The notes under the pieces were generated by a model. It did no database searches. It had not been told where the DNA came from and was given only the letters and a program-made list of their open reading frames with translations. Positions 17,316 to 51,900 of a stretch of DNA of 56,870 bases are shown piece after piece (the first letter of the stretch is position 1; every line of letters starts with the position of its first letter). Source of the DNA: a virus (lineage: Duplodnaviria; Heunggongvirae; Uroviricota; Caudoviricetes); IMG/VR virus record IMGVR_UViG_2850796239_000009; one strand, given 5' to 3'. A program made the position numbers and the translations under genes.

Positions 17316-17333
17316 ATCTCTTGAGGGCTTTTA

Positions 17334-18574: not shown

Positions 18575-18575
18575 T

Positions 18576-18833: not shown

Positions 18834-18846
18834 CCAGTAAATAATG

Positions 18847-18869
18847 CCCCTCATCACGAGGGGTTTTTT
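18847..18869 (+). terminator. Rho-independent terminator after int-alpA
   Basis: CCCCTC-ATCAC-GAGGGG hairpin followed by TTTTTT. Confidence 0.5.
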
Positions 18870-18889
18870 GTCTATAAGGTAAAAACGCG

Positions 18890-19468: not shown

Positions 19469-19801
19469 CAAAACAAAGGCGACCGCAAAAGGGTCGCCAG
19501 TGGGAACAAGGGAAAACAAAAGCATCACCAACAATGCCACATTTGCGGCTGGTGGGCAATGTGATCAGTCAGATTTGGTTCGTTCCAAGGTTTGCAACGA
19601 GAGCTTTTTCCTGTGCTCTTTAAGGAATTTCTCAAGAGCAAACGAACAAGGTGCGAATCTTTCTGATTCATGTTCATGCGCTATATTTTTGCGTCGTCTC
19701 TTACGAGTTGGTGATGGTGTTTTGGTTGATTCTGTGTCGCTCATGGTGCTGTCCTGTAAAGCAATGCGCCTGCGTTCCTCAAACTATGGCGCTGATATTG
19801 G

Positions 19802-20107
19802 CTATTCATGCTCTTTGACCTTGCGTCGCTGGAGTTCTTCACGCGCGACGGTGACGAGTTGCCCGATCTCCTCGGCTGCTTTGATGCCGATTTGTTCGAC
19901 CTTAGCCAGGGCATCCAGTGACGACACAAGGGGATTTTCTCCGCTGCCTTCTGCTTGGCGGCGGGCTATTTCTCCGCGCATGGCGGTTACGATAAATCCG
20001 GCATTGCTTTCACCGTCCAGCTTAACGGATTCCATCCCTTGCATAACATCTAGTGGGACTCTGACAGTTGTCAGTTGTGATTTTGCGTTTTTGTTAGCCG
20101 TTGCCAT
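19802..20107 (-). CDS. Putative ribbon-helix-helix DNA-binding regulator
   Basis: 101-aa ORF whose N-terminus (TTVRVPLDVMQGMESVKLDGESNAGFIVTAMRGEIARRQ) has an RHH-like strand-helix-helix pattern; divergent from the downstream operon. Confidence 0.35.
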   Translation of the reverse strand: MATANKNAKSQLTTVRVPLDVMQGMESVKLDGESNAGFIVTAMRGEIARRQAEGSGENPLVSSLDALAKVEQIGIKAAEEIGQLVTVAREELQRRKVKEHE

Positions 20108-20168
20108 TTCTGAAACTCCTAATCATCGGTGTGTTTCAGTATACACAAAAAAAGAAATACAAAAAGCC

Positions 20169-20206
20169 TTGACGTGTGTTTCATGCGCTCATAACATGAA
20201 ACACAC
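20169..20206 (+). promoter_or_regulatory. Putative promoter (-35 TTGACG) overlapped by a 12-bp inverted repeat operator
   Basis: GTGTGTTTCATG-n9-CATGAAACACAC perfect inverted repeat at 20174-20206 in the divergent intergenic region. Confidence 0.35.
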
Positions 20207-20348
20207 CGAAAGGATTGTTGAAATACAAAGAGCAACGCCCCGCAGTGCTGGGAACACATACGGGGCGTCTAACCAACAACGTAAACTAGGCTGTGTCCCT
20301 TAATCATCTGAGCTATAGTAACTGTCTGTTTACACAACATATTGAACT

Positions 20349-20798
20349 ATGGCTCGCTACGACCTTCCCGATGAGGCATGGACCATCATCAAGCCCCTGT
20401 TACCTCCTGAACCCGCCACACCACGGGCCGGACGCCCATGGGCTGAGCACCGTAAAATCATCAATGGCATGTTCTGGGTGTTATGTTCCGGTGCACCATG
20501 GCGCGATTTACCCGAACGATATGGGTCATGGAAAACTGTTTATAACCGCTTTAACCGATGGTCAAAGTCAGGCGTGATTAATATTATTTTCAACAGGTTG
20601 CTTTCGCTACTTGATGCAAACGGCTTTATTGACTGGTCTGCCACCGCGCTGGATGGCAGTAATATCCGGGCGCTGAAATGTGCCGCCGGTGCTCAAAAAA
20701 ACATCCCGATATCGACGGAGATAATGGGCCGGGTCGCTCTCGCGGCGGTTTTGGCACCAAAATCCATCTGGCAACAGACGGAAGTGGCCTCCCGTTAA
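20349..20798 (+). CDS. IS5-family transposase OrfA (copy 2)
   Basis: 149-aa ORF MARYDLPDEAWTIIKPLLPP...; A7 slippery run (GCTCAAAAAAAC) near its end feeds into orfB. Confidence 0.8.
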   Translation: MARYDLPDEAWTIIKPLLPPEPATPRAGRPWAEHRKIINGMFWVLCSGAPWRDLPERYGSWKTVYNRFNRWSKSGVINIIFNRLLSLLDANGFIDWSATALDGSNIRALKCAAGAQKNIPISTEIMGRVALAAVLAPKSIWQQTEVASR

Positions 20799-21193
20799 AT
20801 ATCGTGCTAAGCCCCGGACAAGCTCATGAAAGCCAGTTCGCGCAACGACTTCTGGACGGGATTGGCGTTCAGCGTCAGAACGGCAGCATGAAACGCCGTG
20901 GACATGCGGTACTGGCTGATAAAGCGTATTCAGGGCGCGCATTGCGCAACGAGCTGAAAAATAACGGTATAAAGGCAGTAATCCCCCGAAAGTCAAATGA
21001 GAAAATGGCATCGGATGGACGTGCACAGCTTGATCGTGATGCGTACCGCAATCGTAATGTCGTTGAACGGTGCTTTGGGCGGCTGAAAGAATATCGCCGC
21101 ATCGCCACGCGTTACGACAAAACGGCGAGAAATTACCTGGCGATGGTGAAACTGGGCTGCATCCGACTCTTTTATCAACGCTTACGTAATTAA
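20678..21193 (+). CDS. IS5-family transposase OrfB (DDE domain; likely OrfAB fusion by -1 frameshift)
   Basis: 171-aa ORF overlapping orfA in the -1 frame. Confidence 0.75.
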   Translation: MCRRCSKKHPDIDGDNGPGRSRGGFGTKIHLATDGSGLPLNIVLSPGQAHESQFAQRLLDGIGVQRQNGSMKRRGHAVLADKAYSGRALRNELKNNGIKAVIPRKSNEKMASDGRAQLDRDAYRNRNVVERCFGRLKEYRRIATRYDKTARNYLAMVKLGCIRLFYQRLRN

Positions 21194-21215
21194 GGGACAC
21201 AGCCTAGGAGCCGTT

Positions 21216-21413
21216 ATGGTTGCTGTAAATCATATACCACACCTTGTACACACACAAACGGCCTTTGTGTGGCGTTTTCTGGCACTGAGTGCCGGAGAAT
21301 CTCAAATCATCCACGTAACCGCCTGGACGGAACGCGAAGCGCGTAGCCGTTGCCCGTCCGGTTGTGTTGCTGTATTCGCTGCAAAAATCCGCCAGGGAGT
21401 GAGTCATGCTTAA
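21216..21413 (+). CDS. Hypothetical small protein (satellite operon)
   Basis: 65-aa ORF starting right after the IS5-family copy. Confidence 0.25.
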   Translation: MVAVNHIPHLVHTQTAFVWRFLALSAGESQIIHVTAWTEREARSRCPSGCVAVFAAKIRQGVSHA

Positions 21414-21591
21414 AACCTTCCGTGTATTTGCCCGAGCTGTTAACCCAATAGGCCACACAATTGGTATCGCTCAGAATGTGAAGGCTGTTAATGTTCAGAC
21501 GGCTATTGCTGCGGTGAGAAGCGAATCATCAGAATATGGCTTATCACAAGTCATTATTTCAGCAGTGTATGAATTAAAAGAGGTGCATTAA
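21406..21591 (+). CDS. Hypothetical small protein (satellite operon)
   Basis: 61-aa ORF overlapping its neighbours. Confidence 0.3.
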   Translation: MLKTFRVFARAVNPIGHTIGIAQNVKAVNVQTAIAAVRSESSEYGLSQVIISAVYELKEVH

Positions 21592-21782
21592 TGCAGGAAA
21601 TTACATTACACGAAGCCGCTGAACGTGCGCACCAGACAGAAATTATTTGCCGCCTTCTTGAGGTATACCCGAACAAAATTACAGATGCTGATATATCCGC
21701 ACTGGCGAGCCTACTGGCGCGTCTTTCGGGAAGTGTCGCTAGTTTTTTGATTGAGGAAGAAAGTAAGCTGGTGGGGGATTAA
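21591..21782 (+). CDS. Hypothetical small protein (satellite operon)
   Basis: 63-aa ORF with overlapping stop/start. Confidence 0.3.
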   Translation: MQEITLHEAAERAHQTEIICRLLEVYPNKITDADISALASLLARLSGSVASFLIEEESKLVGD

Positions 21783-22004
21783 ATGAATACAGAACGGGAA
21801 GTCTTTTTTAAATTGTTAGCATGTGCAGAAAGTTCATTAACTTTAAATAATTCAGCAAAAGCAATATTAAATATGTGGCTTGATTGCATAAATGACAATG
21901 AAGATGCAAATATTGCTTATGGCCTGTTGTCACTTATTGATGAATCAGCAGAAAAACTCAATGACGCAATAAATAGTGCCCTGCTATCAAATAAGTCGAG
22001 TTAA
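21783..22004 (+). CDS. Hypothetical small protein (satellite operon)
   Basis: 73-aa ORF. Confidence 0.3.
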   Translation: MNTEREVFFKLLACAESSLTLNNSAKAILNMWLDCINDNEDANIAYGLLSLIDESAEKLNDAINSALLSNKSS

Positions 22005-22021
22005 GTCGAGGAATAAATAAT

Positions 22022-22321
22022 ATGGAAATGAAAAATTCTGGCTTTATTGCCAGCGGCCCCGCTCGACCTGAATTTATGAACGGCGATATTTACCGCGATA
22101 AATACGGCGGCACGGTAACGATTAAAGGCGTGGCAGAACGGCGCATCACTTACCGCCGTGAGGGGTATAGCTATGACTGCGTGATGCCTGTTTATCAGTT
22201 CCGGCGTGATTTTTCCCTGGTATATGCCGCACCCCGCAGTAAGCCCATCAGCAGGGAAAAAGCGTGGGGAAATATCCAGAAAATGAAAACCATGATTAAC
22301 GGATTCAGAGGTAAAAAATGA
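22022..22321 (+). CDS. Hypothetical protein (satellite operon)
   Basis: 99-aa ORF whose stop overlaps the pri-rep start. Confidence 0.3.
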   Translation: MEMKNSGFIASGPARPEFMNGDIYRDKYGGTVTIKGVAERRITYRREGYSYDCVMPVYQFRRDFSLVYAAPRSKPISREKAWGNIQKMKTMINGFRGKK

Positions 22322-24071
22322 AACTGGCACCGAACGTAAAACAGCAGTCACGCGGCATAAAACACAAAGGAACAGAAGTAATTATTTTTGCGGGTAGTGA
22401 TGCCTGGGCACACGCGAAACAATGGCAGGAACATGATGCGCGTATGGCCGGAGATAATGAGCCTCCTGTGTGGCTTGGGGAGCAGCAGCTATCCGAACTG
22501 GATAATCTGCAAATTGTGCCGGAAGGCCGAAAATCAGCACGCATATACAGGGCCGGATATCTTGCGCCTGTAATGATAAAGGCGATTGGTCAGAAGCTGG
22601 CGGCAGCAGGCGTACAGGATGCAAATTTTTATCCTGAGGGTATGCACGGCCAGGAGGTGCAGAACTGGCGCGAATATCTGGCCCGTGAACGCCAGAATCT
22701 TTCTGATGGTCTGGTCATTGAGCTTCCGGTAAAGCAAAAGGCGCAACTTTCGCAGATGGCGGACAGTGAGCGCGCGCAGTTGCTTGCCGATCGCTTTGAT
22801 GGCGTTTGCGTACATCCTGAAAGTGAAATCGTTCACGTATGGCGCGGCGGGGTATGGTGTCCGGTCAGCACAATGGAACTTAGCCGCGAAATGGTGGCGA
22901 TCTATTCAGAGCACAGGGCCACTTTCAGCAAGCGCGTAATCAATAACGCCGTGGAAGCGTTAAAAGTTATTGCCGAACCAATGGGCGAGCCGTCTGGCGA
23001 TTTGCTGCCGTTCGCCAATGGTGCGCTTGACCTGAAAACGGGGGAATTTTCCCCGCACACGCCGGAGAACTGGATCACCACGCACAACGGCATTGAGTAC
23101 ACGCCACCAGCACCAGGGGAGAACATCCGCGATAACGCGCCAAACTTTCATAAATGGCTTGAGCACGCAGCCGGAAAAGACCCGCGCAAGATGATGCGTA
23201 TATGTGCCGCGCTGTACATGATTATGGCGAACCGGTACGACTGGCAGATGTTTATTGAGGCCACCGGAGACGGCGGGAGCGGTAAAAGTACATTCACACA
23301 CATAGCCAGCCTTCTGGCAGGGAAACAGAACACGGTAAGCGCTGAAATGACATCGCTTGATGATGCTGGTGGACGTGCGCAGGTTGTCGGGAGTCGTCTT
23401 ATCGTCCTGGCTGACCAGCCGAAATATACAGGCGAAGGAACGGGCATCAAGAAAATCACAGGCGGCGACCCGTGGAAATTAACCCGAAATATGAAAAGCG
23501 TTTCACGGCGGTAATCAGGGCGGTGGTGCTGGCGACCAACAACAACCCGATGATATTCACCGAACGGGCCGGAGGTGTGGCACGTCGTCGCGTGATTTTC
23601 CGTTTCGACAATATCGTCAGTGAGGCCGAAAAAGACAGGGAGCTACCGGAAAAGATTGCGGCTGAAATCCCCGTTATTATCCGCCGATTGCTGGCGAACT
23701 TTACCGACCCTGAGAAGGCACGGGCTTTACTACTGGAACAGCGTGACGGTGATGAAGCACTGGCAATAAAGCAACAGACGGATCCGGTTATTGAGTTTTG
23801 CCAGTTCCTGAATTTTCTGGAGGAAGCGCGCGGCCTGATGATGGGTGGCGGTGGTGATTCAGTGAAGTACACGACCAGGAACAGCCTTTACCGCGTCTAT
23901 CTGGCGTTTATGGCATACGCGGGCAGGAGCAAACCGCTAAACGTGGCTGAGTTCAGCAAGGCCATGAAGCCAGCGGCGAAAGTTTACGGGCATGAATATA
24001 TTACGCGAAAAGTTAAGGGAGTAACGCAGACCAACGCAATTACAACAGACGATTGCGACGCGTTTTTATAA
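22318..24071 (+). pseudogene. Primase-helicase (pri-rep, D5/P4-alpha-like), frame broken near 23470
   Basis: Walker A GDGGSGKST; ...KITGGDP switches frame to VEINPKYEKRF...NNNP (helicase-like C-terminus); two ORFs 22318-23514 and 23472-24071. Confidence 0.7.
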
Positions 24072-24087
24072 TTTTTTGTAAAAGCCA

Positions 24088-24325
24088 TCTACCCCATCTA
24101 CCTGAACGAAATAAACGCATATTATTCAACATGATAAGTGGGTATAGGGCTAGGTAGAAGGCTAATAAAAGCTCTCTACCTCTTCTACCTGATTTTATCA
24201 GTTTCAGGTAGCAGGGTAGACGGCAGGTAGAGGAGTCAAAAAAGCTATCTACCCGCTGAAAGCGGCGCCATTACTGACATGATGAGCATTCGGGTAGATG
24301 GGTAGAGGGGGGAGGCACAACTAAA
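24088..24325 (+). repeat. Iteron cluster / putative satellite replication origin
   Basis: At least ten TCTACC/GGTAGA-type repeats in both orientations with AT-rich spacers, directly downstream of pri-rep. Confidence 0.5.
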
Positions 24326-24355
24326 AACTTTTTAAACGAGGGGGGGTGAAAATAA

Positions 24356-24670
24356 ATGCGCATACATAAAAATCACTTAACAAACATGCCAGCCGAAAAC
24401 ATGAATCAGGGGCGACAAATGACCAAAATTCGCAGAGACAGAACACAGGCAAAATATAAAGCGTTAGACATGACAGAGCTTTCCTTAAAGGTGGCAATCA
24501 AAGCGATAGACCACCACACACGGGCAGGATACGCGAAGGAACATCCCGACCTGATAAGCGCATTCATGACCACAGCAGCGGCAAACTTTGCCACGCTGAC
24601 AGAACGGGAGATTGCCGAAGCGGAACAGGTGACAACCATCAATGTTAAAACCGGAGAGCAGACAGCATGA
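24356..24670 (+). CDS. Hypothetical protein
   Basis: 104-aa ORF; no recognisable motif. Confidence 0.3.
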   Translation: MRIHKNHLTNMPAENMNQGRQMTKIRRDRTQAKYKALDMTELSLKVAIKAIDHHTRAGYAKEHPDLISAFMTTAAANFATLTEREIAEAEQVTTINVKTGEQTA

Positions 24671-25089
24671 CAGCACAGATAGCGGCTTACGGGCGGCTGG
24701 TGGCTGACCCGCAGTTAAAGACCACCAGCAAAGGGACACAAATGGCGATGGCGAGTATGGCGGTTCCCCTGCCGTGCAGCCAGGCAGATGACGGAACGGC
24801 GACGATGTGGTTATCCGTCCTGGCGTTTGGCAGACAGGCCGACGCACTGGCAAAACACCACAAAGGCGAACTGGTGAGCGTGGCGGGTAACATGCAGGTA
24901 AGCCAGTGGACAGGCCAGAACGGCGAAACGCGGCGGGGCTGGCAGGTTATCGCAGACAGCGTAATCAGTGCGCGAACGGCGCGACCGGGCGGCAAAAAAG
25001 GCCAGCAGGGGCAGGCCACTGACGCACTGAACAGGGCAAAACAACAGTCGGGGAATGATGATCCGTACGGCGATAATATACCGTTTTAA
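24667..25089 (+). CDS. SSB-like single-stranded DNA-binding protein
   Basis: 140-aa ORF with Gly/Gln-rich linker and acidic C-terminal tip DDPYGDNIPF resembling the SSB tail DDDIPF. Confidence 0.5.
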   Translation: MTAQIAAYGRLVADPQLKTTSKGTQMAMASMAVPLPCSQADDGTATMWLSVLAFGRQADALAKHHKGELVSVAGNMQVSQWTGQNGETRRGWQVIADSVISARTARPGGKKGQQGQATDALNRAKQQSGNDDPYGDNIPF

Positions 25090-25300
25090 ATTCTGCAAAC
25101 AAAAAGATGCCGGAAAAAAATAGATTTTCCGGCATGCTACATAAATCCCGACCAAAGGAAGTAAATACATTAACACGAATTATCAGCACTGAAGTTGTTA
25201 CGGCATATTTTATACAACATTGCACTTGGTTGCATGTGTTCGCATAGCAGACATCGGTAATAGAATATATTCACAATTATTTGTAATGAATGTAAAGAGG

Positions 25301-26347
25301 ATGAGTATGGTTGATTTATATTCGCCTACACAGCTTGTGCAGGTGGCTAATGCTGAAGATGTGCAAAAAAATTAAATGCGTTGTTTACCAGTTTGTTTTT
25401 CACTCGCTCGGTAATGTTTGAATCGAGAGACATTATTCTTGATACGATCGACGATCCAAATATCCCGATCGCGGCGTTTTGCTCTCCTATGGTGGGCAGT
25501 AAAGTTTCACGAGATGAGGGATACGAATCAAAAACAATTCGTCCAGGTTATATGAAGCCGAAAAGCAGCATTGATCCAAATAAGTTAGCTGTGCAGCCCT
25601 GCTGGTGTGTCACCTGAGCAATACAATGCTTTTGGGGCGCGTAATATTAAAGTTAAACAGGCGATTGTAAATCAGGCTAAAGCTATTCGTGCACGTATTG
25701 AATGGCTTGCTGTTCAGGCAATCACAACGGGGAAAAATATCATTGAGGGCGATGGTATTGAACGTTATGAGCTGGACTGGAATATAAAACCACAAAATAT
25801 CATCACTCAGTCTGGCGGTACTGAGTGGTCAGGTAAGGATAAAGAAACTTTTGATCCAAATGATGATATTGAGAGCTACGCAGAATTTAGTGAGGGCGTC
25901 ACTAATATCATCATTATGGGTGGTAATGTATGGAAGAAATACCGTTCATTCAGAGCGATAAAAGAGGCTTTGGATACCCGTCGTGGTTCTAATTCCGAAC
26001 TGGAAACGGCCCTTAAAGACCTTGGTGATTCGGTGAGTTTTAAAGGGTATATGGGCGATGTTGCGATTGTTGTTTACAGCGGGCGTTATACCGACGAGGA
26101 CGGAACAGAAAAACATTTCCTTGATCCTGATTTGATGGTGCTTGGCAATACGGCTCTTCAGGGGATTGTCGCCTATGGCGGTATTCAGGATCCGGAGCTA
26201 ATCCGAATGGGGCTGACTAAAGCCGAACTTGCACCGAAAAACTATATTGTGCCTGGTGATCCGGCTATTGAATATGTGCAGACACATTCAGCACCACAGC
26301 CAATACCGGCCCGCATCAATCGTTTTGTTACCGTTCGCATTGGCTAA
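25301..26347 (+). pseudogene. Major capsid protein paralog (lambda gpE-like) encoded by the satellite; two homopolymer frame breaks
   Basis: MSMVDLYSPTQLVQVANAEDVQK (compare gpE MSMYTTAQLLAANEQKF), then ...ITQSGGTEWS...DTRRGSNSELETALKDLG...GDVAIVVYSG... alignable with the helper gpE at 31416-32441; breaks at the A7 run 25365-25371 and CCC at 25597-25599. Confidence 0.75.
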
Positions 26348-26356
26348 GGGGGAGCA

Positions 26357-26698
26357 ATGGCTACTCATTACACTGAACTCATGGCTGGCACTGAAGCACT
26401 GGTGACTACGCTGGGGATATTTTCAGCTAATAAAGGGGTAATTCCTGCATTTACGCCACTGATGCAGGAAGATGCAACAGGTGCACTGGTGGTATGGGAT
26501 GGTTCGAGCGTAGGTAAAGCGGTTTATGTTTCCGCTGTACAAATCGACACCGCGAAAAAAACACAGGCTCAGGTCTATAAGACAGGTGTCTTAAATGTTG
26601 ATGCTCTGAACTGGCCTGAGTCTGTTAAAGAACTGTCAGTAAAGGTTGCAGCGTTTGTTGGCTCAGGTATTTCTGTTCAGCCGCTGGCTCGTGTGTAA
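26357..26698 (+). CDS. Head decoration protein paralog (lambda gpD-like) encoded by the satellite
   Basis: 113-aa ORF with ...AFTPLMQEDATGALVVWDGSSVGKAVYVSAVQID... alignable with helper gpD (...[35 protein letters not shown]...). Confidence 0.7.
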   Translation: MATHYTELMAGTEALVTTLGIFSANKGVIPAFTPLMQEDATGALVVWDGSSVGKAVYVSAVQIDTAKKTQAQVYKTGVLNVDALNWPESVKELSVKVAAFVGSGISVQPLARV

Positions 26699-26709
26699 AG
26701 GGGGATACA

Positions 26710-27093
26710 ATGCAGAATGATTACAATGACCTTAAGCCAATTGCCGAAATGATGTACCCGAATCCAGCTGTAGAGGAATTAAAAGCTATCGCTGACAAAA
26801 TGTGTTTAAGCGAGCGCCTTGTTGATATGAATCAGGTGATGGAAATTACAACCCTGAGTCGTCGTACACTGCTAAACCTTGAGGCTAGTGGAGAGTTCCC
26901 GGAGCGTGTGCAGGTTACGGAAGGGCGTAAGGCCTGGTATTTAAGTGAAGTGATCGACTGGATAAATAATATTCCTCGCGCTTCTGAATATTGCCGCGTA
27001 CCTGTCCCAAAAAAGCCAGATGCGGCGCTATGCCTCAAGATTGAGCGTGTACGCCGCAATGCACGGGATGGTCGCTATAAGCTGATTGGTTGA
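26710..27093 (+). CDS. AlpA-like HTH DNA-binding protein
   Basis: 127-aa ORF with ...MEITTLSRRTLLNLEASGEFPERVQVTEGRKAWYLSEVIDWINN, a MerR/AlpA-like HTH pattern. Confidence 0.45.
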   Translation: MQNDYNDLKPIAEMMYPNPAVEELKAIADKMCLSERLVDMNQVMEITTLSRRTLLNLEASGEFPERVQVTEGRKAWYLSEVIDWINNIPRASEYCRVPVPKKPDAALCLKIERVRRNARDGRYKLIG

Positions 27094-27149
27094 TGAAATT
27101 AGGGCCCGCTCTGGCTGGCGGGTCCTTTCCGGTGATCCGGTAGGCTACG

Positions 27150-27161
27150 GGGCGGCGACCT
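27150..27161 (+). other. Satellite cos site (cosN GGGCGGCGACCT, helper-like cosQ, divergent cosB)
   Basis: GGGTCCTTTCCGGTGATCCGGTAGGCTACGGGGCGGCGACCTCGCGGGTTTTCGCTATTTATGA matches the helper cos at 12131-12195 almost base for base, then diverges. Confidence 0.75.
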
Positions 27162-27282
27162 CGCGGGTTTTCGCTATTTATGAGCCTTTTTCGGGTGCTG
27201 GTGGTGGTTTTGTTGTTCGCTCTATCTCTATGAATAAAAAGGAAAAGATAAAGCCAATACACCAACCTGAAACATTACTTAA

Positions 27283-27837
27283 GTGGGGATATTGATGAAA
27301 TCGCACCTGATGAACAAAAAAAACATGGCGCAAAGCTGCCGTGTAAGTGCGACAGCGTTCGACAAGTGGGGAGTGACTCCCGTTGAACGTAAAGGCCGCG
27401 AGGCGTTTTATGATGTTGCCAGCGTAATAGACAATCGGGTTAGCAATGCAATTAACCAGATTACAGACGACAAAGGCGAGATTGATGATGATGAACTCCT
27501 ACGAGTCAGGATCAGATTGCTGACAGCACAGGCAGAGGCGCAGGAGCTTAAAAACGAGCGCGAACGCGGCGACGTTATTGATACAGCGTTTTGTATATAC
27601 GTGCTTTCAAAATTGGCGAGTCAGATTTCTTCAATCATGGACAGCCTGCCGCTTGCCATGACAAGGAAGTTTCCCGACATGAAGCCGTCTATGCTGGATG
27701 GACTGAAAAAAGAAGTTATCAGAGCCTGTAACGCATGCGCAAAACTTGACGAAAACATACCGCTGATGCTGTCCGATTATCTGATGGAAACTGCCGGAAA
27801 CGTACCGGATAAGTTGCAGCCGAATAAAGATAAGTAA
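27283..27837 (+). CDS. Satellite terminase small subunit (Nu1-like; divergent N-terminal domain)
   Basis: C-terminal part ...LTAQAEAQELKNERERGDVIDTAFCIYVLSKLASQISSIMDSLPL... parallels Nu1 ...[46 protein letters not shown]...; true start may be Met-10 (27310). Confidence 0.7.
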   Translation: MGILMKSHLMNKKNMAQSCRVSATAFDKWGVTPVERKGREAFYDVASVIDNRVSNAINQITDDKGEIDDDELLRVRIRLLTAQAEAQELKNERERGDVIDTAFCIYVLSKLASQISSIMDSLPLAMTRKFPDMKPSMLDGLKKEVIRACNACAKLDENIPLMLSDYLMETAGNVPDKLQPNKDK

Positions 27838-27848
27838 CGTAGTACGCT

Positions 27849-28130
27849 ATGACTGAATCCGAAATACTGCGATTAATCCGCCGTGCTTGTGGAATCAGCA
27901 AGCAGCATGACGAACAGGCCACGCAGCCGGACAGCGTGACCGCAGATAATTATGTGCGTGTAGTGGCTGAGGTGATGCGCCGTGACGGTATTGAGCTTAA
28001 CGGCGTGGATATGCGCAACATACGAACAAGAGTCCTTGAGTTGCTGGCATATCGTCGCCGTTCTCAACAACGGAGGGAGAGCGCGAAAAATACTTACCAG
28101 TGGAAGAAGCCGGAACGATTGCGGCGGTAA
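27849..28130 (+). CDS. Hypothetical protein
   Basis: 93-aa basic ORF after terS. Confidence 0.3.
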   Translation: MTESEILRLIRRACGISKQHDEQATQPDSVTADNYVRVVAEVMRRDGIELNGVDMRNIRTRVLELLAYRRRSQQRRESAKNTYQWKKPERLRR

Positions 28131-28560
28131 CTTGCTGATATTCCCGATAACGCAAAATTGCGCTGGCTGACTTGTTGCATTGCAAAAAGTTAAGCAGGAA
28201 GGCACGGCCTGTAAGATGGGATGCAGTAAGTAGTTCAAGGCTACCTTGTGCTGGCACGCACAGTTAAGCCGTCGGTGCTGGATATCCCCCACTGGGGAAA
28301 AGCTGGCTACATCCCTCACATCTGAGGACTGATAACGCGACATTGCGCTGGCTGGCAAAGTGCAAAATTGCACGATGGCCTAACCCATTGATTATTTCGA
28401 AAACCTGCAATGCAGGAAATCGGGGAAGTAAGCCTAAGCTATTGATTGTTTCGAAAACCCCCATTGGGGGATGTCGGGAAAGTAAGACTAACCCATTGAT
28501 TCTTCCACAATCCTCAATTTGAGGAGGCCGGAACGTCTACATAGCTGCATCGCCGTAATG
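28130..28560 (+). repeat. Array of direct repeats each containing a different perfect palindrome (covarying stems)
   Basis: Three tandem ~54-bp units (28383-28545) share ATTGATTnTTyC...TCGGGrAAGTAAG and hold CCTGCA-A-TGCAGG, CCCCCA-T-TGGGGG, CCTCAA-T-TTGAGG; related pair GATAACGCnAnATTGCGCTGGCTG at 28146 and 28331 with CGCAA-AA-TTGCG, TTGCA-T-TGCAA, GTGCAA-AA-TTGCAC. Confidence 0.6.
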
Positions 28561-28843
28561 ATGATTCAGCCCACCAGCCAAATCAGCACAGCAACGACAG
28601 AATAGCCCGACACAGAAAAACCACGAATATGGGGTTTTTGTTATGACATGGTCATGATGACCACTCATACAAAACAGGTAAAGCCCACCAGCCTGATTAA
28701 AGGTTAACCGGAAAAAAGCCAGGTATCCAATCTCGATATGGGGATCCCTATATCGACATTAACGCCCACTAAAACTGTGCATATATGCATAGAAAAAGCA
28801 TCCACCAGCTTTATGACGGATGCCGCTCATCTTATAAATAATC

Positions 28844-28866
28844 GTGTATTGCAGTGTGTATTGCGA
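28844..28866 (+). repeat. Two GTGTATTGC repeats next to attR (arm-type-like)
   Basis: CGTGTATTGCAGTGTGTATTGCGA, related to the TGTGTATTGCAA repeats at attL. Confidence 0.4.
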
Positions 28867-28946
28867 CTCCTTTAAACGATAGGTCTGAGCATTCGTAATG
28901 TACTGTTTTTAAATTTTATTTTTTCCTGTCTTTTCATAAAGGCGAT

Positions 28947-31027: not shown

Positions 31028-31360
31028 ATGACGAGCAAAGAAACCTTTACCCATTACCAGCCGCTGGGCAACAGTGACCCGGCTCATACCGCAACCGCGC
31101 CCGGCGGATTGAGTGCGAAAGCGCCTGCAATGACCCCGCTGATGCCGGACACCTCCACCCGTAAGCTGGTTGCGTGGGATGGCACCACCGACGGTGCTGC
31201 CGTTGGCATTCTTGCGGTTGCTGCTGACCAGACCAGCACCACGCTGACGTTCTACAAGTCCGGCACGTTCCGTTATGAGGATGTGCTCTGGCCGGAGGCT
31301 GCCAGCGATGAGACGAAAAAACGGACCGCGTTTGCCGGAACGGCAATCAGCATCCTTTAA
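31028..31360 (+). CDS. D: Head decoration protein gpD
   Basis: [27 protein letters not shown]...; followed by a GCCGCCTGTGCGGC hairpin. Confidence 0.9.
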
Positions 31361-32441: not shown

Positions 32442-32523
32442 TCATGGCCCTTCGGGGCCATTTTCTCTCTGTGGAGGAGTCCATGACGAAAGTAAGCGCT
32501 CCGAGAAGTACGTAGCGTAAGGA

Positions 32524-34124
32524 TTATTTTACAGACGAGAAGTTCCAGGGCAGCAGTTCATGCACTTGGTTCGACGGCCAGTCATTGAGCTTCTCGATCA
32601 CTTCGCGCAACCAGTCCTCCGGCTCCACTTCGTTCTGTTTGCAGGTGACCAGCAGACTGTAGATGATCGCCGCACTTTCTCCTCCCTTGTCTGAGCCGAA
32701 AAAGAGATAATTTTTTCTTCCAACCGCCACCGATCGTAACGCGTTTTCACCGATGTTGTTGTCTATTTCCACCCAGCCGTCACGACAGAACTCGTTCAGC
32801 GCATTCCAGTGATTCAGGATATAGTCGAACGCCTTCGCCATCTCCGCATGTTTCGACAGCGTTTTCCTCTGCAACTGTATCCAGTCGTACAACGACTGCA
32901 TCAACTGGACGCTTCTGGCTTTTCTGACTGCAAGCCGTTCCTCTGCCGGACTGCCACGTATCTCCGCTTCTATGTCGTATAACTCTGCTATCCGTCTGAG
33001 CGCTTCCTGAGTCATTTCTGTCGGACGGCGCACATCCTCGTCATGGATTTTTCGGCGGGCGTGGGCCAGGCACCCGGCTTCCTTCACCCGGCCCGTTTCG
33101 TACAGTACGTTATAACCTGCATAGGCATCAGCCTGCAGTACGCCCTGATACTTTGCCAGGTGGAGCTGCGGATGTTCTCCTTTGCGATCTGCCGAATACG
33201 CGAACCAGACGGCTGCCGGCAGGGATGAACCCGCATTACGATCATCCCTGACGTATACCCACAGACGACCCGTTTTCGTCTTTCCGTTCCCCGGGGCCAG
33301 TACTTTCACCGGAGTGTCATCTGCGTGCACCTTTCCTGCCTCCAGAACATAGTCATTCAGCGCTATATACAGAGGACGGAGTTTGTCTGCCATTTCTGAT
33401 ACCCAGCGCACCATGGTATTACGGCTCAGCTCCACGCCCTGTCGCGCGTATATTTCTGACTGGCGATATAAAGGGATATGTTCCATATATTTGCTGACCA
33501 GGATCCGTGCAAGTAACCCTGCACTGGCATAACCGCGTTCGATCGGTTTAGGGGAAGTGGTGCCTGAACGATGACATCACACCGGCTACAGGCCAGTTTG
33601 GGACGTATGGTTTCGATAACTTTAAAGGCGGTATTAATGATATCCAGTTGCTCTGAGATTGTTTCCCCCATTTCTTTCAGAACACCTCCACAGGCCGGGC
33701 AACTGGTTTCAGCAGGCAGAAGGCGATGTGTCTCCCGGGGAAGTTCTGCCGGCAGCGGTTTTCGTGAAGATTTTCGTCCCGGGGATTCAGGCTTACTGGC
33801 GATCGGGTTTTCTGACGGGGGACTGGTGTCAGGTGAATCTGTGACTGACGATGCATCTTCCAGAAGATTTCTGGCTGTGTTCAGCCGGTTTTCCAGTTCC
33901 GACAGTCGTTTTTCTGCCTGTCGGATCTGATTTTCAAGCTTATGACGCTTTTTCTCTGAACTCTGGCCGAACAACATACGACGCAACCTGTCGAGTTGCG
34001 CTTTCAGCCGTTCAATTTCCTGCTCATAGCCCGCGACCTGACAGGCATACTGTCGAAGCCGACTCTGTTGCTTACGCAACATGGCTTTAAGCAGCTCAAT
34101 ATCATCGGGGAGTTCATTGTTCAT
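32524..34124 (-). pseudogene. IS66-family transposase TnpC, frame broken near 33520
   Basis: N-terminal zinc-finger part (CPACGG...CSRCDV) at 33426-34124 and C-terminal DDE part ([17 protein letters not shown]...) at 32524-33486 lie in different frames. Confidence 0.75.
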
Positions 34125-34143
34125 TCCCTTGTTTTATCACGGG

Positions 34144-34491
34144 TTATATCCGGATGCCAGGCCGTTCTGTCCGTTTGGGATGTTGCCACGCGATCCCCTC
34201 CAGTAGCATGGATAACTGAGCTGGCGTCAGGTGCACTTTCCCTTCCCGGGTCACCGGCCAGACGAAGCGGCCCCGTTCCAGGCGTTTGGCGAACAGGCAT
34301 AACCCGTCACGATCGGCCCACAGTATTTTCACCATTTTGCCACTGCGGCCCCGGAAGACGAAGATATGCCCGGAGAACGGGTCATCTTTCAGCGTGTTCT
34401 GCACCTTCGAAGCCAGGCCATTGAAGCCACAACGCATATCTGTGATGCCAGCGATGATCCAGATTTTGGTACCGGTCGGCAGCGTTATCAT
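34144..34491 (-). CDS. IS66-family TnpB
   Basis: 115-aa ORF MITLPTGTKIWIIAGITDMRCGFNGLASKVQ..., the IS66 Orf2 pattern. Confidence 0.8.
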   Translation of the reverse strand: MITLPTGTKIWIIAGITDMRCGFNGLASKVQNTLKDDPFSGHIFVFRGRSGKMVKILWADRDGLCLFAKRLERGRFVWPVTREGKVHLTPAQLSMLLEGIAWQHPKRTERPGIRI

Positions 34492-34619
34492 CGGATACCC
34501 CCTTTCATTTCGCGGATTAGCGCCCGTAACAGTTCCGGAGTGAGAGGGTCAAACAGTTTTACCACACCTGATTTAAGATGCAGCTCGCACCGTGGGACGT
34601 TTCCGGGAGCCCCCTCAGG

Positions 34620-35920
34620 CTGAGGAATCCCCAGAAAACGAGACAGACATAGCATTATGTGATCTACTGATTTGTGCCAACAATTCAATGAGATCACTGC
34701 TATGCCTGTTCATAAAGTATGTCAGAATTTCTTCCGGGATGCCTTAGCACCATTTCATCAGTACCGACAAAATGCCCTGATGGATGCCACAGTGGCGTTA
34801 ATCAACGGAGCATCTCTGACGCTGACCAGTATCGGACGTTTTTTGCCGGGTAATGCACAAGTTAAGAATAAGATCAAACGTATTGATCGCCTCATGGGTA
34901 ATGAGGCGCTCCATCGCGATATTCCAATGATTTTCAGGAATATCACTTCAATGCTGACACGGCAGTTATCTTTATGTGTAATAGCCGTAGACTGGAGTGG
35001 CTATCCCTCCCAGGAGCATCATGTTCTTCGTGCCAGCCTTCTGTGTGACGGGCGTTCCATTCCGTTATTGAGTAAGGTTGTTCCTTCTGAAAAACAAAAT
35101 AATCCATTGATACAACATGATTTCCTTGATTCCCTTGCTCAATCCCTGCCCCCCGATGCCAGGGTTATTATTGTCACGGATGCTGGATTTCAGAGCGCAT
35201 GGTTTCACCATATTACTTCTCTGGGCTGGGATTTTATTGGTCGGATCAGAAATAACGTTCAGTATTGCCTCGATAACGCGCCTGAAAGATGGTTAAAAGT
35301 GTCGGATAGCCCTGAATGTAAAACACCGGAATATATGGGGGCTGGAAGGCTGGTTAAAGAAAGGAAAAAAAGCATCCGGGGGCATTTTTACACCTATAAG
35401 AAATCGGCAAAAGGGCGAAAAAAGAAACGTTCGAAAGGTCAGAGTGGTTTAAACAAAACAGACAAAGAACAGAGCAAATCAGCAAAAGAAGCCTGGTTGA
35501 TCTTCAGCAGTACAAATGACTTCAGAGCGCGAGAAATCATCAAGTTATACAGTCGGCGAATGCAGATTGAGCAAAACTTTCGTGATGAAAAGAACGGGCG
35601 CTTCGGATTTGGTCTTCGGGCCAGCAAAAGTCGTTCAACAGGAAGAATTCTGGTTCTGAGTCTGCTGGCAACGTTGAGCACTATCGTAATGTGGTTACTC
35701 GGTTATCACGCTGAAAATAAAGGGTTACACCTGAAATATCAGGCTAACAGCATTAAATCCCGGCGGGTTATCTCATATCTGACGTTAGCGAAGAATGTTC
35801 TTCGACACTCGCCACTTATTTTAAGACGAACAGTACTGAGCACAGTTCTAAACCATCTGTCCAGAACCTACCGAAATATGGTGCTGGTTTATTAGCAGTA
35901 ATTTTGTGGGGATCCCTCAG
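34620..35920 (+). mobile_element. IS10-like (IS4-family) insertion sequence, copy 2, 1301 bp, nested in the IS66-family element
   Basis: Ends CTGAGGAATCCCCA...TGGGGATCCCTCAG; 9-bp target duplication CCCCTCAGG at 34611-34619 and 35921-35929. Confidence 0.85.
34672..35895 (+). CDS. IS10-like (IS4-family) transposase, intact copy
   Basis: 407-aa ORF with DDE-type architecture similar to the IS10 transposase. Confidence 0.8.
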   Translation: MCQQFNEITAMPVHKVCQNFFRDALAPFHQYRQNALMDATVALINGASLTLTSIGRFLPGNAQVKNKIKRIDRLMGNEALHRDIPMIFRNITSMLTRQLSLCVIAVDWSGYPSQEHHVLRASLLCDGRSIPLLSKVVPSEKQNNPLIQHDFLDSLAQSLPPDARVIIVTDAGFQSAWFHHITSLGWDFIGRIRNNVQYCLDNAPERWLKVSDSPECKTPEYMGAGRLVKERKKSIRGHFYTYKKSAKGRKKKRSKGQSGLNKTDKEQSKSAKEAWLIFSSTNDFRAREIIKLYSRRMQIEQNFRDEKNGRFGFGLRASKSRSTGRILVLSLLATLSTIVMWLLGYHAENKGLHLKYQANSIKSRRVISYLTLAKNVLRHSPLILRRTVLSTVLNHLSRTYRNMVLVY

Positions 35921-36541
35921 CCCCTCAGGGCGCTCATCATGCTTGTTACGCCAGAAGGGATTTGTAACTGGTCTGGTCGGCTCCGGCGTATCAGTCAGTG
36001 CCACCGGGACAGGCATGCATTCCTGTATGTCATCATCGCTCAGTAAGCCGTCCTCGTACTGGCTTTTCCATTTAAACAGCAGGTTATCATTGATATCGTG
36101 TTCTCTGGCGATCCGGGCAACAACAGCCCCAGGCTGTAACGCCTGCTTAGCCAGACGGACCTTAAATTCACGGCTATAGCTGGTTCGCCGTTCTTTTCGC
36201 CATGAGCCTTCTCTGATTTGAGGCTCTGTTAATTCCTTCTTTCTGTTGGCATAAAGGATGGCGTCAAGTTGAGCGAATGAAACTGAATCGGGCAATGGCC
36301 ATGCGATACCGGATGCAAGAAATCGCTGAAAAAGCGTATGTATTGTGGAATGACTGAGACCCAGACGCTGAGCGATGGCCCGGATGGTCAGTTTATCTTC
36401 AAATCTTAAACGCAGGGCATCAGGCAAATAAGAACGGAAGCAGGGAATATCTTTTGTTGTCTGGGAATTCATCGTTCGTGTCCATCAATATAGATGGGCG
36501 CGATTGTTGCCAGACAGGACAATTTTCACAAGACGTCGCTG

Positions 36542-36949
36542 ATGGGGCGCTTACTGACGAAAGATGAACTGATTGCCCGTCTTCAGGTGCTGGGTGAGCA
36601 ACTGAACCGTGATGTCAGCCTGACGGGGACGAAAGAAGAACTGGCGCTCCGTGTGGCAGAGCTGGAAGAGGAGCTTGATGACACGGATGACGCAGCCGGT
36701 CAGGACACGTCTGTCAGCCCGGAAAATGCGCTGACCGGACATGAAAATGAGGTGGTATCAGAACAGACGGATACCGTGACTGATACGGCTGCTCTGGTCA
36801 CGGTCGTGGCACTGGTGACGCTGCATACCGATGCACTTCACGCCACGCGGGATGAACCTGTGGCATTTGTGCTGCCGGGAACGGCGTTTCGTGTCTCTGC
36901 CGGTGTGGCAGCCGAAATGACAGAACGTGGTCTGGCCAGAATGCAATAA
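36542..36949 (+). CDS. FI: DNA-packaging protein FI, native start displaced by IS66-family insertion
   Basis: Native ATG-ACG-AAA lies at 32483-32491 left of the IS; after the IS the frame continues TKDELIARLQVLGEQLNRDV...; an in-frame ATG inside the IS end (36542) would give MGRLL-TKDEL... Confidence 0.6.
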   Translation: MGRLLTKDELIARLQVLGEQLNRDVSLTGTKEELALRVAELEEELDDTDDAAGQDTSVSPENALTGHENEVVSEQTDTVTDTAALVTVVALVTLHTDALHATRDEPVAFVLPGTAFRVSAGVAAEMTERGLARMQ

Positions 36950-48997: not shown

Positions 48998-51900
48998 ATG
49001 GCAGTAAAGATTTCAGGTGTACTGAAAGACGGCACAGGAAAACCGGTACAGAACTGCACAATCCAGCTGAAAGCAAAACGTAACAGCACCACGGTGGTGG
49101 TGAACACGGTGGCCTCAGAAAATCCGGATGAAGCCGGGCGTTACAGCATGGACGTTGAGTACGGTCAGTACAGCGTTATTCTGTTGGTGGAAGGCTTCCC
49201 GCCATCGCATGCCGGGACCATCACCGTGTATGAAGACTCACAACCGGGTACGCTGAATGATTTTCTTGGTGCCATGACGGAGGATGATGCCCGTCCGGAG
49301 GCACTGCGCCGCTTTGAACTGATGGTGGAAGAGGTGGCGCATAACGCGTCCGCAGTGGCACAGAACACGGCAGCCGCAAAGAAGTCAGCCAGCGATGCCG
49401 GCACATCTGCCCGTGAGGCGGCAACCCATGCAACCGATGCTGCAGGCTCAGCACGTGCCGCCAGCACGTCAGCCGGACAGGCTGCATCATCTGCTCAGTC
49501 AGCATCTTCCAGCGCAGGAACGGCATCAACAAAGGCCACTGAAGCATTAAAAAGTGCTGCCGCTGCAGAGTCCTCAAAAAGCGCGGCAGCCACCAGTGCC
49601 GGTGCGGCGAAAACGTCAGAAACGAATGCCGCAGCATCACAACTATCAGCAGCCACTTCTGCATCCACCGCGACCACGAAAGCGTCAGAAGCTGTCACCT
49701 CAGCCAGGGATGCGTCGGCTTCAAAAGAAGCGGCAAAATCATCAGAAACGAACGCATCATCAAGCGCCAGTAGTGCAGCTTCCTCGGCAACGGCGGCAGG
49801 AAATTCCGCGAAGGCGGCAAAAACGTCCGAGACGAACGCTAGGCTGTGTCCCTTAATCATCTGAGCTATAGTAACTGTCTGTTTACACAACATATTGAAC
49901 TATGGCTCGCTACGACCTTCCCGATGAGGCATGGACCATCATCAAGCCCCTGTTACCTCCTGAACCCGCCACACCACGGGCCGGACGCCCATGGGCTGAG
50001 CACCGTAAAATCATCAATGGCATGTTCTGGGTGTTATGTTCCGGTGCACCATGGCGCGATTTACCCGAACGATATGGGTCATGGAAAACTGTTTATAACC
50101 GCTTTAACCGATGGTCAAAGTCAGGCGTGATTAATATTATTTTCAACAGGTTGCTTTCGCTACTTGATGCAAACGGCTTTATTGACTGGTCTGCCACCGC
50201 GCTGGATGGCAGTAATATCCGGGCGCTGAAATGTGCCGCCGGTGCTCAAAAAAACATCCCGATATCGACGGAGATAATGGGCTGGGTCGCTCTCGCGGCG
50301 GTTTTGGCACCAAAATCCATCTGGCAACAGACGGAAGTGGCCTCCCGTTAAATATCGTGCTAAGCCCCGGACAAGCTCATGAAAGCCAGTTCGCGCAACG
50401 ACTTCTGGACGGGATTGGCGTTCAGCGTCAGAACGGCAGCATGAAACGCCGTGGACATGCGGTACTGGCTGATAAAGCGTATTCAGGGCGCGCATTGCGC
50501 AACGAGCTGAAAAATAACGGTATAAAGGCAGTAATCCCCCGAAAGTCAAATGAGAAAATGGCATCGGATGGACGTGCACAGCTTGATCGTGATGCGTACC
50601 GCAATCGTAATGTCGTTGAACGGTGCTTTGGGCGGCTGAAAGAATATCGCCGCATCGCCACGCGTTACGACAAAACGGCGAGAAATTACCTGGCGATGGT
50701 GAAACTGGGCTGCATCCGACTCTTTTATCAACGCTTACGTAATTAAGGGACACAGCCTAGGTCTTCTGAGACGGCAGCGGGACAGAGCGCCTCAGCTGCG
50801 GCAGGCTCAAAAACAGCGGCTGCGTCGTCTGCCAGTGCCGCGTCAACAAGTGCCGGGCAGGCCTCAGCCAGTGCCACCGCAGCCGGAAAATCGGCAGAAA
50901 GCGCCGCATCATCCGCTTCAACAGCCACAACGAAGGCTGGCGAAGCCACTGAACAGGCCAGCGCAGCAGCGAGGTCTGCTTCCGCAGCGAAGACATCCGA
51001 AACGAACGCGAAAGCGTCGGAAACCCGTGCAGAATCCTCAAAAACGGCTGCCGCATCGTCCGCCAGTTCGGCGGCGTCATCGGCATCATCGGCGTCTGCT
51101 TCAAAAGATGAGGCGACCAGACAGGCGTCAGCAGCGAAGGGCAGCGCCACGACGGCATCCACAAAGGCGACAGAGGCAGCTGGCAGTGCGACGGCGGCAG
51201 CACAGAGCAAAAGTACGGCAGAAACCGCGGCAACGCGCGCCGAGACAGCGGCAAAACGGGCAGAGGATATTGCATCCGCCGTGGCGCTTGAGGATGCGAG
51301 CACGACGAAAAAGGGGATAGTCCAGCTCAGTAGTGCAACCAACAGCACATCTGAAACGCTTGCCGCGACACCGAAGGCAGTTAAAGCAGCGAATGACAAT
51401 GCGAATGGCAGGGTACCATCTAACCGAAAAGTTAACGGGAAAGCACTGACTGCGGATATAACATTAACACCGAAAGATATTGGCACTTTAAATTCAGTAA
51501 CGATCTCTTTCTCTGGCGGGGCAGGGTGGTTCAAACTGGCAACGGTTACCATGCCACAAGCGAGTTCCATCGTTTACATCGCATTGATTGGTGGCGCTGG
51601 TTACAACGTCGGCTCCCCACAGCCGTCGGATTAACGAATTTCGCCTGGATCAACACATCCGGCGATACATATGATATTTACGTTGAGATTGGCAATTATG
51701 CGACGAGTGTAAATATCCATTGGGATTGTACTACAAATGCGTCAGTTTCTATTTATACCTCGCCAACATATTCAGCGAGTAAGCCTTCCAGCGTTACCGA
51801 TGGTGTTGTTTATACGATGTATAGCTCACATCAGAAACCTACACCATCAGATATTGGAGCGCTGCCAACGACTGGAGGGACTATTTCAGGTCCGTTGTCT

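Follow-up and report, generated by a model that had tools for sequence, protein, structure and literature searches.

The nested insertion at the start of the FI gene is in all probability an ordinary insertional knock-out of a lambdoid packaging-chaperone gene in a decaying prophage. The window analyzed here, a stretch of 56,870 nucleotides, covers a decaying lambda-like prophage in an IS-rich chromosome, most likely that of Shigella boydii ATCC 35964, in which FI is interrupted by the IS66-family element ISSfl3 and ISSfl3 in turn by the IS4-family element ISSfl1. New here is the presence of the same 4.06-kb ISSfl3::ISSfl1 composite at further loci. The features of the insertion and of a second ISSfl1 copy are as follows.

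15027-16326: second ISSfl1 copy in the window, breaking the portal gene, with its own 9-bp duplication
32473-32479, + strand: native FI ribosome-binding site GGAGGAG (anti-SD duplex −9.3 kcal/mol)
32483, + strand: native FI start codon ATG
32473..32515, + strand: the ribosome-binding site plus the FI stub MTKVSAPRST, 10 codons that enter the IS and end at stop codon TAG (32513-32515)
32484-32491: left 8-bp target-site duplication TGACGAAA, made by ISSfl3
32492-36554, genes on − strand: ISSfl3 whole, 4063 bp with ISSfl1 included, ends GTAAGCGC...GCGCTTAC
32492..34619, − strand: tnpC-proximal segment of ISSfl3, with the terminal repeat GTAAGCGC(T)CC
34124 to 32524, − strand: ISSfl3 tnpC, present as two ORFs, with one G absent from a G-run at ~33550
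34491 to 34144, − strand: ISSfl3 tnpB
34619 to 34488, − strand: final 132 nt of ISSfl3 tnpA
34611-34619: left 9-bp duplication CCCCTCAGG, part of ISSfl3 tnpA, made by ISSfl1
34620-35920, + strand: ISSfl1, IS4 family, IS10-related, 1301 bp, ends CTGAGGAATCCCC...GGGGATCCCTCAG, inverted repeat 17/19 nt
34702-35895, + strand: intact ISSfl1 transposase gene, 397 aa
35921-35929: right 9-bp duplication CCCCTCAGG
35930..36554, − strand: tnpA-proximal segment of ISSfl3, with the terminal repeat ending GCGCTTAC at 36554
36472 to 35930, − strand: first 181 codons of ISSfl3 tnpA
starting at 36531, − strand: predicted tnpA promoter TTGTGA-17-AACAAT
36555-36562: right 8-bp duplication TGACGAAA, containing FI codons 2-3 (ACG AAA)

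The first-pass annotation had bounded the nest by positions 32484 and 36562, which are the exact outer edges of the two 8-bp duplications, and had described an IS66-family element with GTAAGCG-type ends and an 8-bp duplication lying three codons into FI. This description is exact: ISSfl3 sits after the ninth base of FI with TGACGAAA on either side, and other ISSfl3 copies are likewise flanked by 8-bp duplications. FI codons 2-131 resume at 36557, ~4 kb past the native start. On careful alignment the outer and the inner duplications are both present and both targets are restored exactly; removal in silico of ISSfl3 and one duplication copy leaves a perfect E-FI junction. Comparison with uninterrupted E-FI sequence, which had been proposed as a check, gives a gap-free alignment to phage 2G7b that agrees base for base over the junction stretch, and gap-free alignments at 99.7-99.8% identity to seven other assemblies, all of which share this E protein and have FI intact at 131 aa. 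The reconstructed FI is 131 aa long (MTKDELIARL...), matches PF14000, and has the major capsid gene E on one side and FII on the other, in synteny with 2G7b; its C-terminal domain corresponds to 2LSM, the solved domain of gpFI (E = 1e-27). gpFI is a chaperone that aids docking of the terminase-DNA complex on proheads (PMC4856287). A search of one genome per species returned zero matches to the exact FI junction, and in the nested-junction search the junctions were spanned nowhere in 5426 complete E. coli genomes or 72,556 plasmids.

The identity of the outer element was established after deletion of ISSfl1 and one copy of its duplication, which leaves 2753 bp that are 99.7% identical end to end to an intact 2754-bp ISSfl3 annotated as 'IS66-like element ISSfl3 family'. 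In some records this sequence is labelled ISSfl4 ORFs. The element has the IS66 gene order tnpA, tnpB, tnpC and an IS66-type DDE transposase, with NCBIfam matches to IS66_access_TnpA (2e-77), IS66_TnpB (5.5e-37) and transpos_IS66 (2.5e-105) and Pfam matches to DDE_Tnp_IS66, zf-IS66, LZ_Tnp_IS66 and TnpB_IS66. Its terminal inverted repeats are imperfect, having GTAAGCGC at both ends followed by partial matching over ~23 nt; the GTAAGCG terminal motif is typical of the IS66 family. Elements of this family are tabulated with an 8-bp duplication (PMC3281130). In the literature searched, ISSfl3 receives incidental mentions only, and the chromosome accession CP026875 none.

The splitting of tnpA by a nested IS with a 9-bp duplication had also been described exactly, CCCCTCAGG occurring just twice in the window, at the flanks of ISSfl1. 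ISSfl1 was recognized by its 99.9% identity to copies carrying the annotation 'IS4-like element ISSfl1 family', and it has a single DDE_Tnp_1 transposase of ~400 aa (NCBIfam transpos_IS4_2, 1.6e-108). Its earlier designation as a second 'IS10-like' copy is borne out in that another ISSfl1 lies at 15027-16326, and is correct at the level of the IS4 family, but not beyond it: the transposase is only ~35-37% identical to IS10A/ISVsa5, and close kinship to IS10 is not found. Three other ISSfl1 copies are flanked by the 9-bp duplications CCTTCTGGG (window, + strand), CCTCAGGGG and CCCGCGCGG(G), and the target sites have in common only a loose pattern, CCY....GG or, loosely symmetric, CC.....GG. IS10 also makes 9-bp duplications, at a symmetric consensus.

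The first-pass annotation implied that ISSfl3 arrived first and that ISSfl1 entered it in situ. The nesting stands; the order does not follow, because the identical ISSfl3::ISSfl1 composite recurs at a second locus of this chromosome (4064 bp, 99.9% identity) and at a third locus in a third assembly. Nested junctions, orientation and the CCCCTCAGG duplication agree throughout, so that the order of insertion at FI is unreadable from the duplications. Target-site duplications alone do not order nested insertions when the nest recurs at several loci. That the composite was already nested on entering FI, having moved as a unit with the help of ISSfl3 proteins from other copies acting in trans, is a serious possibility although on balance we lean somewhat against it, and it competes with in-situ nesting for the order only, not with the knock-out. 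The recurrence of the composite is consistent with such movement, as is the FI copy, whose terminal repeats are both intact and whose 8-bp duplication, likewise intact, encloses the entire composite; in addition, the loose patterning of ISSfl1 targets makes three independent hits on one site unlikely. However, the second locus lacks an 8-bp duplication, its counterpart in another S. boydii strain is an ISSfl3 without ISSfl1, and the sequence characters of ISSfl3, in a comparison that drew on copies from the strain's plasmid, track strain and not locus, so that gene conversion among copies could have spread ISSfl1 instead. Moreover, at least one locus must be that of the original in-situ event, and tnpA of the composite is disrupted and would have to be complemented in trans. 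The 4.06-kb nest might itself be mobile, moved by trans-acting ISSfl3 proteins, a milder proposal than the donation of a start codon by ISSfl3 considered below. A pre-existing nest on a pINV plasmid was rejected as a candidate, ISSfl1 and ISSfl3 being separate neighbors there that had been merged by hit-joining, and a search of one genome per species returned zero matches to the exact nested junction.

In the knock-out favored here, ISSfl3 would have transposed into FI after its ninth base, duplicating 8 bp, with ISSfl1 either already in its tnpA on arrival or gained later. Ribosomes starting at the intact native FI site would make a 10-residue peptide and then stop, and FI codons 2-131 would have been left 4 kb downstream, behind IS sequence that is open for 21 codons by chance and holds two ATGs. 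Since these ATGs have no Shine-Dalgarno sequence and the IS end has no promoter, little protein is expected from them, and not in meaningful amounts. The features on this side of the insertion are as follows.

36071..36099, + strand: candidate promoter TTTAAA-17-(TGa)TATCGT, found by PWM, antisense within tnpA
36494..36949, + strand: in-frame ORF of 151 aa, MGAIVARQDNFHKTSLMGRLL-TKDEL..., comprising 21 IS-derived codons and FI codons 2-131
36494 and 36542, + strand: IS-borne ATGs of the ORF, that at 36494 directly following a TAG

The same layout had been taken as a possible IS-driven gene fusion. In a functional fusion the ISSfl3 end would give the start codon, an internal antisense promoter or read-through would give the transcript, and an extended gpFI (MGRLL- or 21-residue) would work as a packaging chaperone; the evidence makes this very improbable. 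The ATG at 36542 is indeed in frame (MGRLL-TKDELIARL), although the frame opens one ATG earlier, at 36494, and the ORF keeps every FI residue except Met1, including the domain that matches 2LSM. It is called by gene callers and deposited as EFW53941.1, 'Phage DNA-packaging protein'. However, random sequence would stay open for about as long, ~21 codons, before meeting a stop. The ribosome-binding site near 36542, suspected from the outset to be weak, is not detectable: the anti-SD check shows no Shine-Dalgarno at ATG 36494 or ATG 36542 (duplex energies +0.6 and −0.7 kcal/mol, respectively), against −9.3 kcal/mol for the start of native FI; the background in the window is −2.5 kcal/mol. The native FI, FII, Z and U genes, unlike the IS-borne ATGs, have strong Shine-Dalgarno sequences. 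ATG 36494 is furthermore predicted to lie inside a stable hairpin. Together these energies and the predicted hairpin indicate that ribosomes have no workable start site on the fused ORF.

Promoter prediction at the right end of the IS, suggested as a further check, likewise lends the fusion no support. On the + strand, the IS end has no sigma-70 consensus promoter and no −35 or −10 element, and the PWM gave no + strand match over the final 420 nt of the element; no outward-facing promoter element is therefore seen at the end of ISSfl3. The candidate at 36071, a moderate match 420 nt upstream of the ORF, is the only notable + strand promoter-like site before the FI remnant; its score is at the 99.97th percentile for the window, and ~0.2 such sites are expected by chance in this 640-nt stretch. 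FI belongs to the lambdoid late operon, and upon induction Q-antiterminated pR' transcription would be expected to cross the insert. The earlier restriction of possible transcription to sources within the IS was therefore too narrow, and the obstacle for the FI ORF is translation initiation, not transcription. In a trap-plasmid study in Paracoccus, outward promoters were shown to come with IS5-family (IS903 group), IS3-family (IS407 group) and IS21-family elements, and IS66-family elements are not reported among the promoter-delivering elements (PMC3281130).

Set against the knock-out are the promoter-like site at 36071 and the retention in the ORF of all FI residues but Met1. In addition, there could be read-through from the ISSfl1 transposase gene, which points the same way as FI, and a late transcript under antitermination should span the ORF on induction, so that some initiation independent of a Shine-Dalgarno sequence is possible.

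The fusion is further weakened by its setting, in that another ISSfl1 interrupts the portal gene and the prophage can therefore build no heads whatever the fate of FI, and in that the FI insertion is seen in only two near-identical assemblies, relatives retaining the intact gene. There is only a very slim prospect that the ISSfl3 end serves as a portable start-codon donor and that FI expression has been re-wired and not destroyed, by the promoter-like site at 36071 or by read-through from ISSfl1, to give an N-terminally extended, active gpFI. Given the broken portal gene, it probably matters little whether FI still works. From the sequence we infer that FI is neither expressed nor under selection. 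Gene callers list the 151-aa ORF as a complete "DNA-packaging protein" in spite of the split in the gene, a caution to anyone relying on such calls.

That the nest is an artefact of mis-joined repeats can be set aside almost entirely: the window assembly does have systematic single-G deletions in G-runs, and a contig of the near-identical ATCC 9905 draft does run from E into ISSfl3 without ISSfl1 and exit into unrelated flank, but mis-joins do not create perfect duplications that restore both targets exactly, the nested junctions recur in two further loci and assemblies, the ATCC 9905 FI contig starts 4 nt past the right edge of ISSfl1 and independently confirms the ISSfl3-FI junction, and the ISSfl1-less contig ends in foreign flank as a collapsed repeat would. 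For the latter reason the ATCC 9905 draft gives no guidance on whether FI::ISSfl3 exists without ISSfl1. Every indel between the window and this independent draft is a G missing from a G-run. Several of the "frameshifts" in the window, that in tnpC included, thus look like assembly errors, and real decay was rejected as the reading of the frameshift in tnpC, of the splits in the tape-measure and J genes and of the frameshift in one ISSfl1 copy. Besides the run at ~33550, suspect G-runs lie at 41649, 43584, 43786 and 45875. Systematic deletions of this kind create false frameshifts.

Insertions are numerous in this prophage, with two ISSfl1, one ISSfl3 and three ISSfl7-like copies lying inside phage genes of the 57-kb window. 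A separate feature, at 17139-28938 inside portal gene B, has the characteristics of a helper-embedded PICI, being integrase-bearing, co-oriented, within a lambdoid late gene and flanked by att repeats. It contains int, AlpA, primase, capsid-like, decoration-protein and Nu1-like genes and a cos-like stretch, its ends carry a 13-bp imperfect repeat on both sides, and 63 complete E. coli genomes share its junction. Elements of this class are the subject of PMC10111431.

Compared with known systems, the FI product resembles gpFI of phage lambda (PF14000; 2LSM) in its reconstructed length of 131 aa, its C-terminal domain and its E and FII neighbors, and differs in that the gene here is split after codon 3. 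The FI copy of ISSfl3 shares with the reference element its sequence, gene order, GTAAGCG ends and 8-bp duplication; it differs in having tnpA cut by ISSfl1 after codon 181, one private base change in the terminal repeat at position 32500, and a tnpC short of one G, which is probably an assembly error. The inner element has the single transposase, CTGAG..ATCCCC ends and 9-bp duplications of ISSfl1; with IS10 it shares the family and the 9-bp duplications, but it is a distant relative and not an IS10 copy, and it has no RNA-OUT recognizable by an Rfam scan for this or other RNAs, which gave only a chance mir-55 match (E = 0.13). In IS-mediated gene activation, outward or hybrid −35 promoters and IS-derived starts drive a neighboring gene; here too an IS end adjoins a coding sequence with an in-frame ATG nearby, whereas the ISSfl3 end has no −35, −10 or ribosome-binding site. 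The window as a whole fits IS expansion and prophage decay in Shigella with nothing unusual, and its biological weight is small, as one more instance of IS elements eroding Shigella prophages.

The nested insertion at the start of FI, the DNA-packaging gene between E and FII, lies exactly at the coordinates given by the first-pass annotation, and the duplications claimed there are real rather than coincidental. FI begins with the ATG at 32483, and GGAGGAG lies just upstream. An outer element of 4063 bp, with ends GTAAGCGC and GCGCTTAC, contains an inner element of 1301 bp whose terminal inverted repeats match at 17 of 19 positions. Each is bounded by a direct duplication:

32484-32491 and 36555-36562: 8-bp duplication TGACGAAA, flanking the outer element
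34611-34619 and 35921-35929: 9-bp duplication CCCCTCAGG, flanking the inner element

Both occurrences of CCCCTCAGG within the window are at the inner-element edges. When the inner element is excised in silico together with one 9-mer, the remaining 2753 bp match an intact 2754-bp copy end to end at 99.7% identity. Excision of the outer element and one 8-mer restores an E-FI junction in gap-free alignment with phage 2G7b, the junction stretch agreeing base for base. The comparison with uninterrupted sequence, which had been proposed as a check, extends to seven other assemblies that match the restored junction at 99.7-99.8% identity, also without gaps; all seven have the same E protein, and their FI is intact at 131 aa. 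Among them are two further complete chromosomes with neighbouring accession numbers, CP026845.1 and CP026877.1. The nested anatomy in FI is thereby confirmed; both elements, the FI gene and the phenomenon are already known. The window coincides with CP026875.1 (GCA_002950355.1), whose locus L005 is a 100% match to positions 26494-46949; we infer that this chromosome comes from the same strain as the next accession, CP026876.1, which is the Shigella boydii ATCC 35964 invasion plasmid.

The outer element is ISSfl3 of the IS66 family, the name borne by RefSeq copies at 99.7% identity, and its TnpA, TnpB and IS66 DDE transposase, all on the minus strand, are recognised by NCBIfam and Pfam. The inner element, at 99.9% identity to annotated copies, is ISSfl1, an IS4-family element that encodes an intact 397-aa transposase on the plus strand and interrupts the tnpA of ISSfl3 past codon 181 of 224. 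Because this transposase is only 35-37% identical to those of IS10A and ISVsa5, the earlier description of the inner element as IS10-like holds at the family level and not beyond it. Near the transposase-proximal end of ISSfl1, a promoter-like site (TTGGCA-15-CATAAT, 34680-34650, minus strand) points outward into tnpB-tnpC; it presumably corresponds in position to pOUT of IS10 and could drive tnpB-tnpC transcription in the composite.

The suggestion that the insertion creates a functional, IS-driven fusion of FI through an IS-borne ATG at 36542 is rejected, because start signals are missing at both candidate ATGs and there is no promoter at the IS end. The ATG at 36542 is present and in frame, though preceded by another at 36494, and is thus the second in-frame ATG of a 151-aa ORF deposited also as EFW53941.1 from S. 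boydii ATCC 9905. The frame open before FI codon 2 spans 21 codons from ATG 36494, immediately 3' of a TAG; random sequence also runs for about 21 codons on average before a stop, so the open frame is unremarkable. Anti-Shine-Dalgarno pairing is +0.6 kcal/mol at 36494 and -0.7 at 36542, as suspected of the latter site, compared with -9.3 at the native FI start, -9.6 to -10.7 for FII, Z and U, and a window background of -2.5 +/- 2.5 kcal/mol. ATG 36494 also lies in the stem of a predicted stable hairpin (-31.5 kcal/mol for the 81 nt around it), and no upstream ORF was found to end where translational coupling to this ATG could occur. Promoter prediction at the right end of the IS, likewise proposed as a check, yielded no plus-strand promoter in that region by consensus scan and no plus-strand match within 420 nt of the IS end by position-weight scan. 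The sole position-weight candidate is further in, at 36071 (TTTAAA-17-TATCGT with a TG extension; 99.97th percentile of window scores, with about 0.2 such sites expected by chance in a 640-nt stretch), and the same scan places the probable tnpA promoter at 36531 on the opposite strand. In a Paracoccus trap-plasmid study, outward promoters were delivered by elements of the IS5 (IS903 group), IS3 (IS407 group) and IS21 families, and IS66-family elements were not reported among them (PMC3281130).

FI is a late-operon gene, co-oriented with the prophage's lysis, terminase and head genes. The lambda late operon is transcribed from pR' by Q-modified, terminator-resistant polymerase; by analogy, late RNA would probably cross the insert after induction, contrary to the earlier view that transcription must come from inside the IS, and on this analogy transcription would not be the limiting step for the FI remnant. 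Ribosomes on such RNA would use the intact native FI site and produce the peptide MTKVSAPRST, followed by a stop. A terminator-like hairpin (32444-32461; ATGGCCCTTCGGGGCCAT followed by a T-rich run) lies between the E stop and the FI ribosome-binding site and is conserved in 2G7b. The gpFI protein aids docking of the terminase-DNA complex onto proheads (PMC4856287). A second ISSfl1 is present in the window and differs from the nested copy only by a G missing from a G-run:

15027-16326, inverted: ISSfl1 in portal gene B, with its own 9-bp duplication CCTTCTGGG

With the portal absent no prohead is packaged, so the loss of FI in this prophage should be neutral. Only two assemblies, which are near-identical, carry the FI insertion.

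The read-through ORF from TnpA into ISSfl1 (35816-36472, minus strand; a truncated TnpA) is encoded at three places. A second full composite at ~4.86 Mb of CP026875.1 (L010, 5919-9982; 4064 bp, 99.9% identical) adjoins uppS-cdsA-rseP-bamA and has the same junctions and CCCCTCAGG duplication as at FI, with an intact tnpC; no 8-bp duplication is present around it, the flanks being CAGTCACT and GCATTATC. A partial composite is found near katE-cedA in AMJQ01000108.1 (L011, 5919-7950). The nested junction occurs in none of 5426 complete E. coli genomes, 72,556 plasmids and a set of one genome per species. At the positional counterpart of L010 in S. boydii CP026836.1 (L019), ISSfl3 has both flanks and the IS neighbours as in L010, without ISSfl1. 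Four ISSfl1 target sites (CCCCTCAGG, CCTCAGGGG, CCCGCGCGG and CCCAGAAGG) have no more in common than a loose CC.....GG pattern, which makes it unlikely that one site was hit repeatedly and independently; the same nest at several loci therefore points to spread either through gene conversion or through transposition of the entire composite. In a table of variable sites, all ten sampled ISSfl3 copies of CP026836.1 (L012-L021) have A at column 467 and a 5-bp insertion (ACTGC) splitting tnpC, whereas the nested, un-nested and plasmid-borne copies of ATCC 35964 have neither, even at the shared locus. This shows that ISSfl3 characters track strain rather than locus, a pattern that points to concerted evolution among copies, or else to the expansion of one variant with a broken transposase frame.

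The tnpC gene at FI reads as two ORFs, with one G missing from a G-run near 33550. Over 10 kb, a single substitution and four single-base indels separate the window from an independent ATCC 9905 draft contig, each of the four indels being a G missing from a G-run; that contig has an intact tape-measure gene (858 aa), whereas in the window the gene is split. The frameshift of the ISSfl1 copy in the portal gene is due to the same type of change. Relative to independent sequences the affected sites are:

33550, 41649, 43584, 43786, 45875 and the G-run of ISSfl1 copy 1: missing G

As every indel is of this kind, the reading-frame breaks seen in tnpC, the tape-measure gene and the J region probably reflect systematic errors of long-read assembly, and the secure lesions of the prophage are the IS insertions only. 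Another ATCC 9905 draft contig (L033, AERN01000048.1; last 240 nt) runs from E into ISSfl3 without ISSfl1 and then into unrelated flank, as would a collapsed repeat; this contig also lacks ~85 nt of the D gene present in the window (31163-31247).

Further mobile elements in the window are:

~10672-11599, 20279-21207 and 49832-50760: three copies of an IS5-family element of ~0.92 kb, the closest annotated being "ISSfl7 family"
17139-28938: integrase-bearing island of 11.8 kb inside portal gene B, with flanks AAGGCGATTTATG and AAGGCGATGTATG

The ISSfl7-like copies lie between the lysis genes and cos, within the satellite island and in the tail-fibre region; because one is inverted relative to the other two, IS-mediated inversions are possible. 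The island carries int, a P4-type primase, a capsid-like gene, a decoration-protein gene, AlpA, a cos-like stretch and a Nu1-like gene, and its portal-integrase junction is present in 63 of 5426 complete E. coli genomes. Helper-embedded PICIs are a published class for which portal sites are listed, and the island fits this class, including its portal site (PMC10111431).
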